From: a virus
Taxonomy: Duplodnaviria; Caudoviricetes
IMG/VR virus record: IMGVR_UViG_3300013121_000046
Reading direction: 5' to 3' (one strand)
DNA: 64,000 bases
The translations under genes and the position numbers were made by a program. Position 1 is the first letter of the stretch, and every line of letters starts with the position of its first letter. This document shows, in pieces, positions 26,406-40,975 of this stretch. The notes below the pieces were generated by a model. That model made no database searches. It worked only from the letters and a program-made list of their open reading frames with translations, and was not told where the DNA came from.

Positions 26406-26753
26406 CTAGCTCCAAAATATCTGATCTTTAGCCTTGAGGGGAATACCCGTAAATCTTTCGTAAATTCTTTTCCATTTAGGGTACAAGTCTCGCTTTTCCA
26501 TACCACCGTATTTTTCCTGCACAGCTAGTAAAGCATCCAACCAAGACTCTTGGGGAGTCAGTTTTTCCTCCGTAAGCCCACGCCCTACACTGTCGAGCAG
26601 TAAAGACTCTATCTCCAGAGCCTCCTGCTTATACCTGGTATCAATTTCCTCCGGAGTATACTCCGATCTAGGAGCAGCCTCCAGCAAGGCTGTAGCTAGT
26701 CTCCAACGTCGGGTTGCGTCCATACTAGTAACTTGTCTTAGTATACCCACCAC
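26406..26753 (-). CDS. hypothetical protein
   Basis: ORF fills the gap; likely start MDATRR (~26723). Confidence 0.55.
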   Translation of the reverse strand: MVGILRQVTSMDATRRWRLATALLEAAPRSEYTPEEIDTRYKQEALEIESLLLDSVGRGLTEEKLTPQESWLDALLAVQEKYGGMEKRDLYPKWKRIYERFTGIPLKAKDQIFWS

Positions 26754-28407
26754 TAGAAGAACTTCCAGAAGGGGTTGTGAGTTTGGCTACATCATTCGGA
26801 TTCTGTGTTGTAATGTCTACAGTCCCACCAGGACCAGGGGAAACCTTAGCTCCTGGTCCCATTTCCTGTCTAATCTTTTGCGCCGACGGCGGAGTGACTG
26901 TAACATTAAGCTCAGGGGCAGTAGGATTAGTCTGCCCTGAAACACTGGCCAGAAGATTATACCTGTCAATGAATTTAGTGTTGAAACCATACTTACATAA
27001 TCGTCTGCCCAATTTACCCAGAAGCTTCGTGTCCAGAGAACAAATCCTCGAAGCCCTTCTGGATTGAATAGACACCTCTACCGAATCCGTAATACCCAAA
27101 GAAGAAACGATCTCTCTAACCGTACGATGGACCGTATTTTTCTCGCCACTAGGCAAATCTGGCTCATCTTTTCCCAAGGGTCCCAGGTAATCTTTTTCTG
27201 TGTCCACAGGTTGATTCAGTGCAAAATTTGCATAATCAGGACTTTTCTGTAGGGCTAAATGCCAAACTGCTTCCCAAGCTGGGGTAGAATCTTTATATAT
27301 GCCGGTCTCTTCGGCTATATCCTCCGGATTCTGTTCCTCCGCCTCCTCTTGCTCTCGGTAACTTCCTTTCTCCCCAGCTTGAAGTTTTTTAGAGGCTTGT
27401 CTTGGTGGTTGTAACCAAGCTTGTACGTTAGCCTGAAGTTGCTGTGGGTTTATTTCAACACCGAAAACTCCAGCAGCTACCAAGGCCTTAAATTCAACGT
27501 TACTTAGCCTGAAGGCTATCGCTAGTTTATTTGGTGACCAACCCGACCGAGTTTTAAGTAAGGTCGGAGAAGACGTTAATTTAATCAGACCTGAGATCAG
27601 CGGGGGTCTTTCATTAGCTACAGCCTTCCTTACTTCTACCTTTTTCAGCTTTTTATAGTATCGAGGATCTTCCGTAAGATGATCTCGCACAATATCCTCA
27701 GCAATTGCGAGATCATCTGTATGCTCCGTCTCTACAGATAAACCTTCCGCTACCTCCTCAGGATCAAAATCCCCCAAAGAAGTATCATCGCCTTTTCCTC
27801 CCGGAAGATCATCATACCAGGGAGTCTTGGTTTCACTCATAGCTTTCACCAAAGCCTTGGGTTTAGAATTAGCTTGACTCTTCCCTAAGTACCTTACACT
27901 GTCTTCCCTAAATAGATTTGCGGTAATTATCCTAAGCTCTCTTACAAAATCTTCTGGGGTTGGATATCGTTTCAGTATCTTAAGCTTACTTCGATCCAAC
28001 CAGACTGCTAAGTCATGCTCCTTTTCCTCAAGTCGAAACCTACCTCCAGTAATTACCCCCCGAAGCATGACACCATACTTACCATCCGGAGTCTTAAAAA
28101 AGACTCTTCTTCCCTGAATAATCTTAACCTCATAACCTGTTTCTTCCTGAACCTCCCTAATCCCGGCCTGTTCTAATGTTTCTCCGGGCTCCCTATGCCC
28201 CCCAGGAGTTTCCCACTGCCCAGTCTTATCATCAGCTTCTGATCTTCGGACAACTAGGATTCTCCCAGAAGAATCTTGTATGACTACTACAACAATCTGT
28301 ATGTCTTTATCCTTAAGTGGACGTACTACTTTTTTACCCTTTTCCCTTACCTCTACTCGATTCGGGTTTTTTATATGCTTTGCTAGGATTGTAGCTAGTC
28401 TAAACAT
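26725..28407 (-). CDS. Nudix hydrolase fused to DUF5661-like and further domains
   Basis: Intact Nudix box GGHREPGETLEQAGIREVQEETG; LPGGKGD..EGLSVETEHTDD..IVRDHLTEDPRYYKKL (DUF5661-like). Confidence 0.8.
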   Translation of the reverse strand: MFRLATILAKHIKNPNRVEVREKGKKVVRPLKDKDIQIVVVVIQDSSGRILVVRRSEADDKTGQWETPGGHREPGETLEQAGIREVQEETGYEVKIIQGRRVFFKTPDGKYGVMLRGVITGGRFRLEEKEHDLAVWLDRSKLKILKRYPTPEDFVRELRIITANLFREDSVRYLGKSQANSKPKALVKAMSETKTPWYDDLPGGKGDDTSLGDFDPEEVAEGLSVETEHTDDLAIAEDIVRDHLTEDPRYYKKLKKVEVRKAVANERPPLISGLIKLTSSPTLLKTRSGWSPNKLAIAFRLSNVEFKALVAAGVFGVEINPQQLQANVQAWLQPPRQASKKLQAGEKGSYREQEEAEEQNPEDIAEETGIYKDSTPAWEAVWHLALQKSPDYANFALNQPVDTEKDYLGPLGKDEPDLPSGEKNTVHRTVREIVSSLGITDSVEVSIQSRRASRICSLDTKLLGKLGRRLCKYGFNTKFIDRYNLLASVSGQTNPTAPELNVTVTPPSAQKIRQEMGPGAKVSPGPGGTVDITTQNPNDVAKLTTPSGSSSSGGYTKTSY

Positions 28408-36719: not shown

Positions 36720-37892
36720 CTATAAAGTTATGGTACACTGTGGGATTCGCCAGTTTGGCTCTCGCTTAGAGGACACGCATTTCCACGGAGGGGGTGGAAC
36801 AACTTCTTCTGGAAAGGTGGTCTGATACCAAGTATTCCAAGTCTTGGTAAGGAACGTAATCTGCTCACTCACTACCCAAGTTGGGAGACCCAACTCCGCA
36901 GAAATTTCAAATACTTTTTGAGGACATTCCATTAAATAATAGTACAAATCTAACAAAGACTTGTATGAAGATTTACATTTAGTCACCCGATTTGGGCCAA
37001 GGTTCTTTGTCAGAGTGCTTGGCCACAATACTCGGTGATCCTGAAGATAGATTGAGTACTGCAAAAAACTTTCACCTGTCGTTCTTGCATTTTCTATCTT
37101 ACCATTCCGCACAAATCTAACCATATCTGAGGATACCCACTCAACTGAATTATTCAACACCAAAGTTTCTGTTCCATCCAATAATTGAATCGGCAACCAG
37201 TACTTCTTAGGTAGTGTTTTTAGCGGAACAATTTTTTCCTCCGTTAGAGAATATCTAGAGATTCCGGGGGGTAAAAGGGTAATTTGATAGGGCGGAATAG
37301 AGAATTTTTTACCTGCTCCCTTAGCTAGTATCTGCCTAAGATGCTCCGGAAATCGCTGAAGAATCTCATCTAGTTGTTGTAAAACCCAAGGTGGCACTTG
37401 TCCCGAATCTACCAAGTGTCTCTGTATCCCTCTAGAATTATGGAGAGAAACCATATCCGCCGAGTATCGGGAAGTTCCGGATCTATGACTAGTTAGCCAT
37501 CGCCAAGTAGCAGTGTAGACATAGGTATTCCATCCAGCCTTAAGGGGATTAAACTTATCCATACACCGGGACTTAAGCCACTTTAGTAACAATGTCTGTA
37601 CATAATCTTCAATATCTTGCGGTGAGCACCCCATCTTAGTTAGAAGAGCCGATACATACTTACGAGTATTTTCCTCTGCCCAAATGGCATCTCCCTTTGT
37701 ATACTGCTCCCAATTTATATCTACTCTATGTAAACAAGCCCGGATCGCTGAATCTGACGAAATATCATCTATACCAAACTTCTTTACCACAGTAAAGAAT
37801 CTTTCGGATGTTTGTTCATACGTATCCGGGAAAGCCTGTTTCGCTATAGTTTTAACTCTAGAAATAAACTCTAAATCCATGTCATCCTCCAT
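36720..37892 (-). CDS. sigma70/ECF-like factor with a large insertion between regions 2 and 4
   Basis: QDIEDYVQTLLLKWL..DKFNPLKAGWNTYVYTATWRWL (region 2); YYYLMECPQKVFEISAELGLPTWVVSEQI (region 4 HTH). Confidence 0.65.
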   Translation of the reverse strand: MEDDMDLEFISRVKTIAKQAFPDTYEQTSERFFTVVKKFGIDDISSDSAIRACLHRVDINWEQYTKGDAIWAEENTRKYVSALLTKMGCSPQDIEDYVQTLLLKWLKSRCMDKFNPLKAGWNTYVYTATWRWLTSHRSGTSRYSADMVSLHNSRGIQRHLVDSGQVPPWVLQQLDEILQRFPEHLRQILAKGAGKKFSIPPYQITLLPPGISRYSLTEEKIVPLKTLPKKYWLPIQLLDGTETLVLNNSVEWVSSDMVRFVRNGKIENARTTGESFLQYSIYLQDHRVLWPSTLTKNLGPNRVTKCKSSYKSLLDLYYYLMECPQKVFEISAELGLPTWVVSEQITFLTKTWNTWYQTTFPEEVVPPPPWKCVSSKREPNWRIPQCTITL

Positions 37893-37906: not shown

Positions 37907-39163
37907 CTATCCAATTGCTACTCCGGGGATATCGAGAAGCTTAACCTGTTTTCTCAATCTCCCCGGTGAAACTTTTCGAGGCAACCTTTCCCTTTGTGGT
38001 TGATTCAGATACTCCAGGTAGAGGGGGATATTCAGTTGACCTGGAACTTCTGAGGATATGAGTACCGCTTTTTGCAACTTACCCCATTGTTCAGCAGTAA
38101 GTGGAGACCGAACAATCAAAAGAATTTCAGATACATCACTAGGTTGTTTCACAACCTTAATTTTGTCCTCCGAAGTCACTGGTTCCGAACATACATCCGG
38201 AAAATATTCTTTTTTGAAGTCTTCTAGGCTAACTAACTCACCCCAGTTATCTCCAACTTCTATATCTGTCTCTATCGGTACATCCCAGTTTTTTTGGTTG
38301 TTGGGAAAGGTCATTAACTCAGAAAGCTTCTGACAATTATCTACGAACTTATCATCCAAGTGAATCTCAAAAACCAATTCATCATGGACATTCAACAAAA
38401 GCTTAACTTGTACGTCGGGATTAGTTAAGAGCCATTCTTGTATCCGACACATCGCAATTTTTAGGATATCAGCGCTGGTCCCCTGGATAGGAGAGTTGCT
38501 GGCTGAATTAGATAGATAACTCTCCCAACGATTCCGTTCTTTTTGTGTTTGTGCCTTCTGTATCTCTCGTATAATATGTCCGACATTCCGTACCCGACCA
38601 TAGAAAGTTGTAACTCGGCCCTCGTTTTTAGCTCGCATGGTTTGAAGATCAAACCATCTGCGATAGGCCGGGAGATTTTCCCACCAGGTAGAATGGAGAG
38701 CGACTGCTTCTGGTAAAGTTAGGTCGCTTTGTCGGTATAGGGTACGAGCGGTACCCCCGTAAAGATTGCCGAAATTGGCTGCTTTGGCCGCATCTCGTTG
38801 TTCTTTGGTGGGCTTATCTGTCTTGTAGGCCACCTTTGCCATTTCGGAATGTAGGTCTCGCCCTTCTCTAAAAGCTGCTATCCAAACTTGTTCCTGTGAT
38901 AACTGGGCGGCTACTCGAAGCTCGATGGCCTTATAGTCAATCGAAACTATCTTCCAGCCAGGTCGAGACCGAAAGGCTCGTCGAATATTAGTTCCAGGAC
39001 CAATTTTTAGACTTGCTTCTTCCCAAGAACAAGCCTTTACCCACTTACATTTTTCACAGGAACTTCTAAAACAGTATGTAATGCCACCCTCTCGCCAAAA
39101 TTGCCCTAATTCCATTACGGCCGGGACATAGCCGGGGGTACCTATTGGTGGTAATTCAGGCAC
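37907..39163 (-). CDS. polA: family A DNA polymerase, C-terminal half (palm/fingers)
   Basis: NIRRAF..IVSIDYKAIELRVAA (motif A), RDAAKAANFGNLYG (motif B), NSPIQGTSADILK, LNVHDELVFE (motif C), GDNWGE; GTG start with GGAG RBS. Confidence 0.93.
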   Translation of the reverse strand: MPELPPIGTPGYVPAVMELGQFWREGGITYCFRSSCEKCKWVKACSWEEASLKIGPGTNIRRAFRSRPGWKIVSIDYKAIELRVAAQLSQEQVWIAAFREGRDLHSEMAKVAYKTDKPTKEQRDAAKAANFGNLYGGTARTLYRQSDLTLPEAVALHSTWWENLPAYRRWFDLQTMRAKNEGRVTTFYGRVRNVGHIIREIQKAQTQKERNRWESYLSNSASNSPIQGTSADILKIAMCRIQEWLLTNPDVQVKLLLNVHDELVFEIHLDDKFVDNCQKLSELMTFPNNQKNWDVPIETDIEVGDNWGELVSLEDFKKEYFPDVCSEPVTSEDKIKVVKQPSDVSEILLIVRSPLTAEQWGKLQKAVLISSEVPGQLNIPLYLEYLNQPQRERLPRKVSPGRLRKQVKLLDIPGVAIG

Positions 39164-39731
39164 GACGATAACTTCTCCAAATCTCTAAATCCATTTCTGC
39201 GGGAGATAAGTTACTGTTAGCGATATGGGATAAAAAAACACGCTCCAATTCTAGGTATCGTTTCCCCGTCGGGGTGTTCTTCGGAGCAGATATGCCCAGA
39301 CTATTGATATACTTCAAAATGTGCGTATCCAACACCGCGAAATGCTGATTTTTTCTTGAGTGCAAAATAAATGCCCGAGAAGTCTTTGGCCCTATACCAT
39401 AAATTGCCTCTAACTCAACAACTGAACAAGTCTGTAAGTCAATTCCTGAGTTAGATATATCTAAAAAGGTTTTTGCCTTTGCCCGAGAGCAACCCATACC
39501 TGCCCACTTTAATCGAACAGCAATCTCTTCATGAGAGAAGTCTTTTATCTGTAAAAAAGGGCTGTCCGCCTTAGGCAGATGCTCTAAAAATTCCTCCACT
39601 ACTCTGGCGGCTAATTTTGCTGTTTTTCCAGCGGCACAAATCCAAAACAGTATCGTCTTCTCTAATTCTGGAACACTTTGATTAAACTGAGTAATATTAT
39701 CCGGATCAATCCTAGGCATACTTAACCTCAT
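39156..39731 (-). CDS. HhH DNA glycosylase/AP lyase (OGG2-like 8-oxoguanine glycosylase family)
   Basis: LEAIYGIGPKTSRAFI (HhH with catalytic Lys), AVLDTHILKY (catalytic Asp), RYLELE..SPAEMDLEIW. Confidence 0.8.
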   Translation of the reverse strand: MRLSMPRIDPDNITQFNQSVPELEKTILFWICAAGKTAKLAARVVEEFLEHLPKADSPFLQIKDFSHEEIAVRLKWAGMGCSRAKAKTFLDISNSGIDLQTCSVVELEAIYGIGPKTSRAFILHSRKNQHFAVLDTHILKYINSLGISAPKNTPTGKRYLELERVFLSHIANSNLSPAEMDLEIWRSYRRA

Positions 39732-40975
39732 TCGTGATTCAATTCTGCTGGGGGTACCTTAATCTTTCTGCACTTTGCTAAACGGTATTTAGAGGCCGAT
39801 GGAATAGATTGAACGTTCATCGCGGTATAGAATTCTCCTTTAGAACCACCACCGGAGGAGAGTCGGCCTGTCGGGGCTCCCACAGAGGAGAACTTAAAGT
39901 GAGCATATGGATCGTCATCTGTAGTAGACTCTAATAATCTTCCGACGTAGGTAGATCTCTCTTTACACAGTTTTCTATATAACACAATCTTAGCCGCTAT
40001 CGGACTAACCTCTGCCAATATCTCTAACTCAGCCTCACCTAAGTTAGGATTACCTTTTTCTGTTTTAGAGAAGGCTATACCATTTTCAGTAAAATACTTA
40101 GCCAATTGCTTACTACTCAGCAAATTGAAAGGTCCCCCGGCTGCCTCATACACTTCCTTCTCCACCTGACAGATCAGACGCTCTAAGGTCTTATCCGCCT
40201 CACGAAGAATAGTCCTGTCCATCAATACACCAGATTCCTCCATGCTCAAAAGACTCTCGATAAGATTGTGCTCTACCTGACAAATCAAAGCCTGTTCTGC
40301 CTCAACTTTTTCTTCCGTAGCTCGATATACCTTGATAGTCATCACTGGGTCAGCCGCCGCATACAAAGTAGCCTGTTCAGGATCTGTATAAGAAAAGTCT
40401 ATCTCACCCCGCATCTTTTTATCTCTAGCTGCTCCAGGTACCTCTCGAATATCCAACATCTGTAACTCTGGATGAAACCACTGAATTGCTGATTTCAGGC
40501 CCACCTTTTCTACCTTCTCGTTGCTATTCCATAACCAAGCATAGACTAAAGCATCCCTCAGTATTGAGTATGAAGCCCGTCTATTCACTCCACACTGCCT
40601 TAAAAACCTACCCTCAAACTTATAGTTATACACCAACAAAATTCTAGGCGGAGCTATCACCTCCTGTATGATTTTCCAAACAATATCTGGATCAAGATTC
40701 TGCTCTGGCTTGACTTTGTGTCTTACTGGACAATAGACCCCTTCATCCGAAGAAAAAGCCAAGCAGTGCCCTACAACATCTTGCTCTTTTGGATCTAGAT
40801 TTGTAGTCTCAATGTCCCATGAGACCAGATTTTGAGTTCTATTAGCCTCAACATAGTCTCGTAACTCTTGTATGGAGCCTATCTGTCGAAGTCGAATTTG
40901 ACTCATCCAAGGCTTCCAAAGAGGGCTATCCTGATATGCTATTCGAGTTTCCAAGGAGGCTGTATCTGTGGGCAT
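39728..40975 (-). CDS. polA: family A DNA polymerase, N-terminal half (3'-5' exonuclease + thumb)
   Basis: VSWDIETT (ExoI), YNYKFE (ExoII), LYAAADP (ExoIII), MEESGVLMD, FNLLSSKQL, YRKLCKERSTY, TGRLSS..NVQSIP, then stop. Confidence 0.92.
   Translation of the reverse strand: MPTDTASLETRIAYQDSPLWKPWMSQIRLRQIGSIQELRDYVEANRTQNLVSWDIETTNLDPKEQDVVGHCLAFSSDEGVYCPVRHKVKPEQNLDPDIVWKIIQEVIAPPRILLVYNYKFEGRFLRQCGVNRRASYSILRDALVYAWLWNSNEKVEKVGLKSAIQWFHPELQMLDIREVPGAARDKKMRGEIDFSYTDPEQATLYAAADPVMTIKVYRATEEKVEAEQALICQVEHNLIESLLSMEESGVLMDRTILREADKTLERLICQVEKEVYEAAGGPFNLLSSKQLAKYFTENGIAFSKTEKGNPNLGEAELEILAEVSPIAAKIVLYRKLCKERSTYVGRLLESTTDDDPYAHFKFSSVGAPTGRLSSGGGSKGEFYTAMNVQSIPSASKYRLAKCRKIKVPPAELNHE

Follow-up and report, generated by a model that had tools for sequence, protein, structure and literature searches.

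A two-gene family A DNA polymerase, probably ancestral to a clade of large uncultured phages, with an Ogg2-like glycosylase as the putative late occupant of the gap

Family A DNA polymerases (PolA) are typically encoded by one gene. In the 64,000-nt stretch of viral DNA analysed here (Duplodnaviria; Caudoviricetes; IMG/VR record IMGVR_UViG_3300013121_000046; hereafter the window), which belongs to the 236-kb genome of an uncultured phage, the polymerase is instead divided between two genes. Positions 37907-40975 are filled by three co-oriented genes, all on the minus strand: a PolA N-half, an Ogg2-type DNA glycosylase, and a PolA C-half. The division of PolA is likely to be ancestral to a whole clade of large uncultured phages, the likelihood applying to the complete explanation developed below. 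The glycosylase is most simply regarded as a late occupant of a pre-existing gap and not as the cause of the split, because the split is clade-wide, the content of the gap varies, and a nearly complete relative genome lacks the glycosylase. An initial annotation of the window had already described a two-gene PolA with an Ogg2-like glycosylase in between, and open reading frames (ORFs), coordinates and Pfam and phrog matches agree with that description.

Each half carries a recognisable part of the enzyme. The N-subunit gene (39728-40975, minus strand; 415 aa) encodes a 3'-5' exonuclease and a thumb, with matches to Pfam DNA_pol_A_exo1 (32 bits) and to positions 3-148 of the 381 positions of the DNA_pol_A profile. 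The C-subunit gene (37907-39163, minus strand; 418 aa) covers positions 138-381 of the same profile (6e-59, 200 bits); its product begins with a Cys4 head, continues into the palm and fingers that bear motifs A, B and C, and finishes, beyond a linker, with an additional C-terminal domain. The cut separates the ...TGRLSS...MNVQSIP segment from motif A (IDYKAIELR), and the N-half of the window ends ~25 residues past MNVQSIP. The catalytic residues on both sides of the cut are preserved. In an alignment of 33 N-halves (A2), the exonuclease residues D54, E56, E121, Y205 and D209 (ExoI DxE, ExoII, and ExoIII YxxxD) are invariant, as are D76, E81, R123, K127, N130, F131, H260, D261 and E262 of motifs A, B and C in an alignment of 21 C-halves (A1). 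Membership of family A is evident from motifs A (DYxxIELR), B (RxxAKxxNFGxxYG) and C (HDE) and from the Pol I palm/fingers fold; a Foldseek search with the C-half model matched Klenow, Bst and KlenTaq polymerases at E 1e-20 (root-mean-square deviation 2.3).

When the C-half is modelled alone with AlphaFold2 (AF2), its core has a predicted local distance difference test score (pLDDT) above 90, while the head (residues 1-60) reaches only 48-67; such low confidence would fit a need for a metal or a partner subunit to fold. Past a disordered linker (residues 325-342, pLDDT below 50) lies the extra C-terminal domain (approximately residues 345-418; 37910-38131, minus strand), delineated by the model and by conservation. 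These ~75 aa are predicted with a pLDDT of 84-93 to form a beta-alpha-beta-beta-alpha-beta arrangement that is conserved across A1 and specific to the clade. Searched in isolation against Pfam, neither the Cys4 head nor the C-terminal domain matched a family even at E values up to 10. Judging from the model, the C-terminal domain could serve to dock a helicase or another part of the replisome.

The same division runs through all relatives that were detected. A word-indexed search retrieved ~20 relatives of the C-half (407-510 aa, 36-47% identity) and ~31 of the N-half (405-450 aa, 39-52% identity). All 33 N-halves in A2 stop right past MNVQAIPSASxYxxAxxRxVxNPP and then carry tails that are variable and often acidic; all 21 C-halves in A1 start at one common point. 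In an exhaustive phmmer search covering 1.84 billion representatives, the 22 best clusters (E <=1e-54) were all C-halves whose matches start between residues 1 and 37 of their own sequence, and intein-like insertions enlarge a few. Contiguous PolAs appeared first at 1e-47, and among them was no close relative with the uninterrupted PAEL-PPIG join that the initial annotation had hoped to find in a glycosylase-free form; none was available for comparison. Beyond the window, the split occurs in 13 further independent assemblies (from ENA, JGI, Logan and IMG/VR). A quick maximum-likelihood tree sets the split clade apart from contiguous PolAs that share the Cys4 motif (approximate likelihood ratio test values of 97-99). 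No member of the clade was found among cultured phage records, where the best match has 27% identity, or among GTDB species genomes scanned with A2. Viral contigs gave no match to the C-half of the window alone, and generic contiguous PolAs only (<=35% identity) when scanned with A1.

Two observations concern the ends of the halves. Many N-halves, although not that of the window, end in long acidic tails (...LFEEE, DDDTEE; for example L004:5800-5898), which resemble the partner-recruiting acidic tails of phage replisomes. A likeness between the N-half tail ('NPPxxEL') and the C-half head ('KPPxLEL') was considered as the trace of a duplication left by the splitting event, and is unsupported: a pairwise test gave p 0.008 for L091, p 0.29 for the window, and no significance for L004, and a profile-profile comparison of A2 with A1 by hhalign yielded nothing (E 0.58).

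The position of the break can be defined more closely by comparison with single-chain enzymes. In canonical PolA the motifs that flank the break are ~6 residues apart, as the initial annotation pointed out; this spacing does not apply here, since the subfamily carries a cysteine-containing insertion even when contiguous. In the split PolA, ~70 extra residues lie between NVQSIP and NIRRAF, and an insertion occupies the corresponding position in contiguous PolAs such as P0294, P0310, P0324, P0354, P0360 and P0365. These residues were therefore not made by the insertion of another gene. They include a Cys4 motif, C-x4-C-x2-C-x3/5-C, which precedes the motif A Asp by ~44 residues in split and single-chain PolAs alike; at least nine contiguous representatives have it. 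In the window, alignment places the motif (C-x4-C-x2-C-x5-C) at 39029-39073 on the minus strand, as C31, C36, C39 and C45 of the C-half. Across the 21 C-halves, C31, C36 and C45 never vary, and C39 is kept in at least 90%. By alignment, the break falls in a variable, poorly conserved linker on the N-terminal side of the Cys4 module, and the motif defines a PolA subfamily with both split and single-chain members.

The iron-sulfur loop of EndoIII and MutY has the spacing C-x6-C-x2-C-x5-C, and the Cys4 spacing recalls this [4Fe-4S] loop; conservation of the cysteines is confirmed, and metal binding would be a prediction from them. To our knowledge, no metal site has been described at this position in family A polymerases. 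The Cys4 module is the most testable new lead to come from this locus.

In contrast to the break itself, what lies between the two genes differs from lineage to lineage. Gap context was compared across 14 loci, namely the window and 13 others. In nine, the gap is empty or short (2-215 nt): L004, L005/L006, L091, L094, L095, L097, L192, a 51-kb JGI contig and a 7.7-kb Logan contig. One locus (L092:2762-3956) has a 57-aa ORF followed by a 339-aa homing endonuclease of the GIY-YIG/NUMOD3/AP2 type (phrog_314, 2e-26). Orphan ORFs occupy three more gaps: two such ORFs (108 and 162 aa) lie in L093, and one each in L096 and an 18-kb JGI contig (127 or 117 aa). The Ogg2-type glycosylase is found in the window only. 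The tree places the window among lineages with empty gaps, and the types of cargo are scattered. As a minor observation, the 57-aa ORF of L092 has a weak MazE/AbrB-like match.

The genome behind L192 (G001, from IMG/VR; 200.7 kb, 91% complete) is particularly informative. Searches of it turned up neither a glycosylase homologue nor PolB or PolIII alpha, and among polymerase matches the split PolA alone exceeds the cut-off. Since a genome of this completeness has the split PolA but not the glycosylase, the two-gene polymerase would appear to function without the repair enzyme. G001 also has a sub-threshold DNA_pol_A-like stretch (C1:91159-91485, L197; 22 bits, profile positions 260-378) within a 295-aa ORF, located far from the split polymerase.

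The glycosylase gene of the window (39156-39731, minus strand; 191 aa) is tightly fitted between its neighbours, and the junctions read from the sequence are those given in the initial annotation. At the upstream junction (39717-39731), the TGA of the N-half (39730-39728) overlaps an ATG at 39731 in the arrangement ATGA. Translation of the glycosylase probably begins at a second ATG (39719-39717), giving 187 aa; this start is preferred because the alignment with homologues begins there and a GAGG (39729-39726) precedes it. At the downstream junction (39156-39178), the C-half has its own GTG (39163-39161), with a GGAG (39178-39175) 11 nt upstream, and overlaps the end of the glycosylase gene, whose stop lies at 39158-39156, by 8 nt. 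The GTG is favoured as the start of the C-half because the conserved G8 and P14 precede the next Met. The three overlapping genes are probably one transcription unit; promoter-like and terminator-like sites show no excess over the expectation from shuffled sequence. A pair of GAATT repeats on the coding strand (AATTC on the plus strand), 588 nt apart at 39741-39745 and 39153-39157, had been taken to mark a seamless join. Both copies are present, but ~0.4 such 5-nt repeats are expected by estimate for any pair of 25-nt windows placed near the two junctions, so that the pair is at chance level.

The gene product is a genuine Ogg2-like enzyme by sequence and model. It exceeds the cut-off of the Pfam helix-hairpin-helix family Ogg-HhH (33 bits versus 27) and matches phrog_11575 at 1e-39. 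The best sequence match in the PDB is 9o00, an 8-oxoguanine glycosylase/apurinic-apyrimidinic (AP) lyase (2.7e-8), and MjaOgg (3fhf and 3knt) is matched too. The AF2 model (pLDDT 95) has the HhH-GPD fold, with 3knt (MjaOgg, TM 0.70), 3n0u (Tm1821) and 3fhf as top Foldseek matches (TM 0.68-0.72, probability 1.0). G112, G114, K116, D135 and H137 are invariant; for K116, in the hairpin GxGxK, and D135 this holds across 32 homologues. K116 aligns with the Lys of 9o00 that is Ser in the variant 9o02. The protein thus shares with the Ogg2 8-oxoguanine glycosylase/AP lyases (MjaOgg, Tm1821, 9o00) both the HhH-GPD fold and the GxGxK...D-x-H catalytic pair. It differs in that identity to these structures is 19-25% only, over the fold alignment, and in that it belongs to a phage-borne subfamily, phrog_11575, whose specificity is predicted; 8-oxoguanine is accordingly a presumed substrate, deduced from sequence.

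Relatives of the phrog_11575 type are widespread on large phage-like contigs and also occur in some metagenome-assembled genomes. They lie in regions devoted to replication and recombination, where their neighbours include DnaB, the archaeal PolD small subunit together with Cdc6, gp32/RecA, Rad52, and a ligase (in CcrColossus). In Erythrobacter phage vB_EliS-L02 (L002:2707-5558), the start of a glycosylase homologue coincides with the final base of an intact 'thermostable DNA polymerase I' gene, so adjacency of PolA and glycosylase also exists in a cultured phage. None of 24 other glycosylase contexts lies inside a PolA.

Taken together, these data can be accommodated by an explanation that is considered likely as a whole. 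The replicative polymerase would be a two-gene family A enzyme inherited from the ancestor of the clade. One polypeptide would provide the proofreading exonuclease and thumb, the other the Cys4 head, palm and fingers, and the extra C-terminal domain, and the two would assemble non-covalently, by analogy with gp43A/43B and split NrdA (see below). The space between the genes would act as a cargo slot that is usually empty, and the glycosylase was most likely recruited secondarily from a pool present in phage replication modules. The three genes would be co-transcribed and their translation tightly coupled: given the overlapping stops and starts and the probable single transcription unit, a repair enzyme for oxidised bases would be made alongside the replicase. 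Several points weigh against this picture. Assembly and polymerase activity of the heterodimer are deduced by analogy; the glycosylase arrangement comes from a single metagenomic assembly; the 14 gaps compared do not include that of the nearest relative of the window, which is represented by P0242 (an N-half with 52% identity, from a contig of 139.6 kb); and the tree was built quickly and leaves many forks poorly separated. To these may be added the question of what originally split the gene, for which a homing endonuclease like that of L092 is a candidate with precedent.

The initial annotation had favoured a different course of events, in which polA was still whole when the glycosylase gene entered one of its loops, so that the insertion itself divided the polymerase and the newcomer was then domesticated. 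On such a view, relatives would later have lost or replaced the gene. The almost exact fit of the gene in the gap, with overlaps on both sides, is compatible with this, as is the recurrence of the same adjacency beside the intact PolA of vB_EliS-L02. It is nevertheless highly improbable: every detectable member of the clade has the same break, only one of 14 gaps holds a glycosylase while nine are empty or short and the others contain unrelated cargo, the window has empty-gap lineages around it in the tree, the near-complete G001 has no such gene, and many independent clean losses would be required. A functional tie between the proteins is a separate matter, and one that is compatible with late insertion. 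The glycosylase might bind the polymerase physically, as a partner or as its third subunit, in replication-coupled base excision repair, as stop/start overlaps with both polymerase genes and the regular presence of the family in replication modules could suggest. This is rather unlikely, since relatives run the same polymerase without the glycosylase, its homologues are free-standing in varied neighbourhoods, and the copy in the window has no conserved polymerase-specific extension in the alignment of glycosylase homologues (A3). A complex prediction for the N-half and residues 1-325 of the C-half with the glycosylase as partner returned a score of 0.00, which speaks neither for nor against binding. 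The stronger combined proposal, that the glycosylase docks on the two-subunit polymerase at the fork to excise oxidised guanines and that the Cys4 head binds a [4Fe-4S] cluster, draws on gene packing and cysteine spacing and is very unlikely; if the latter part were true, family A would gain its first iron-sulfur polymerase.

It may also be asked whether a single polymerase chain is made after all, the interruption being removed as a group I or II intron, as a split intein, or by ribosomal bypass. Introns are frequent in phage PolA genes, according to work cited in PMC10580990, and the two halves are indeed in one frame, as had been noted (40975 and 39163 are both 1 mod 3). The glycosylase, which had also been called in-frame, is not (39731 is 2 mod 3). 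Moreover, the halves share a frame in four of nine relatives and are in different frames in the other five, so that the shared frame is at chance level and carries no mechanistic weight. A cmscan search of 38800-40100 against Rfam at E up to 1 gave 0 matches and Pfam gave no Hint or intein match, in line with the initial annotation, which had seen neither intein nor group I intron. The gap is fully coding, the N-half tail (~25 residues, no intein block) is too short, and the C-half head is extein-like and conserved in contiguous PolAs; removal of the interruption is therefore scarcely plausible. An assembly chimera or a decaying pseudogene might be suspected from an arrangement seen in one metagenomic contig, yet this can be practically discounted, given that the split recurs in 13 independent assemblies, the catalytic residues are all invariant, the junctions are precise gene overlaps, and composition is uniform, the glycosylase gene matching the rest of the window in GC content and codon usage.

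Divided polymerases and other divided replication genes have been described, and the preferred reading, an old split with a late glycosylase, can be set beside them. The closest analogue is gene 43 of Aeromonas phages 25 and 44RR, which is split into 43A and 43B (Petrov et al. 2006, as outlined in the review PMC2988022). The review reports a seg homing endonuclease in the gap of one phage and an untranslated spacer alone in another; because of the latter, the endonuclease may have invaded a gene 43 that was already split. It also states that the two halves from phage 25, gp43A and gp43B, co-purify and polymerise. As in the clade of the window, there are two adjacent genes with a variable gap occupant; gene 43, however, encodes a family B polymerase of T4-like phages, whereas the window has a family A enzyme broken at the thumb/palm boundary beside a Cys4 module, with a repair glycosylase as occupant. 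Within family A, PolA of the OM43 phages MEP401 and MEP402 and related MVGs is divided immediately ahead of motif A, and a 77-aa ORF without an assigned function separates the two parts (PMC10580990). This split was checked here: the Pfam profile match ends at ~132 and resumes at 154. As in the window, an ORF for the exonuclease and N-terminal polymerase part is followed by a small ORF and then one for the C-terminal polymerase part. Unlike the window, these are unrelated 43-kb Zobellviridae podophages, and their 236-aa C-terminal part has neither Cys4 head nor C-terminal domain.

An essential enzyme split by a free-standing gene is also known from phage Aeh1 (nrdA-a / mobE / nrdA-b), where the halves reassemble and are active (Friedrich et al. 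2007, as recounted in PMC2988022). There, the occupant is the HNH homing endonuclease that made the split; in the window, it is not of a known homing nuclease family and the split would be older. Of the traits of homing-endonuclease 'genes-in-pieces', the window displays conserved, adjacent and separately translated halves, while an endonuclease between the halves is seen only in L092. 'Fractured genes', in which split inteins accompany a free-standing endonuclease (PMC2677866), likewise have a conserved replication gene in two pieces with a gene between. They differ in that their pieces carry intein halves; in the present clade, the N-half tail consists of 7-40 variable residues and the C-half head finds its homologue in the body of contiguous PolA. 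Set against these systems, what is new is the clade as such, the Cys4 module next to the break, and cargo that encodes a repair enzyme.

What emerges is a whole clade of large uncultured phages whose only clear polymerase would be a PolA heterodimer broken at the thumb/palm boundary. For split Pol I enzymes, it supplies a natural template that is ready to use. The space between the gene halves would be a landing pad for cargo as varied as a homing endonuclease, orphan ORFs and a repair enzyme, which corrects the tempting conclusion that the occupant of a gap is what caused the split.

Selfish elements turn up elsewhere in these replication modules, which appear to be a hot spot for them. Intein-like enlargement is seen in the C-halves P0016 (567 aa), P0278 (833 aa), P0288 (1192 aa), P0291 (1208 aa) and P0376 (1582 aa), and the 18-kb JGI contig likewise counts among the loci with such insertions. 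The insert in P0016 (~150 aa) has Cys as its first residue, ends in HN, and is located just before NSPIQG. One relative has a DnaB with an intein that carries a LAGLIDADG endonuclease motif.

The gene next to the C-half in the window (36720-37892, minus strand) has syntenic counterparts in L004, L005, L091, L092, L093 and L192; with a product of 390-580 aa, it always comes after the C-half. It is a conserved partner in the replication module; the copy in the window has a weak Sigma70_r2 match only (E 0.004). Further away, at 26725-28407 on the minus strand, the window encodes a protein of 560 aa, in which an N-terminal NUDIX domain (1e-18) is accompanied by DUF5661. Should this protein prove MutT-like, it and the Ogg2-like glycosylase would make up a phage 'GO system'.

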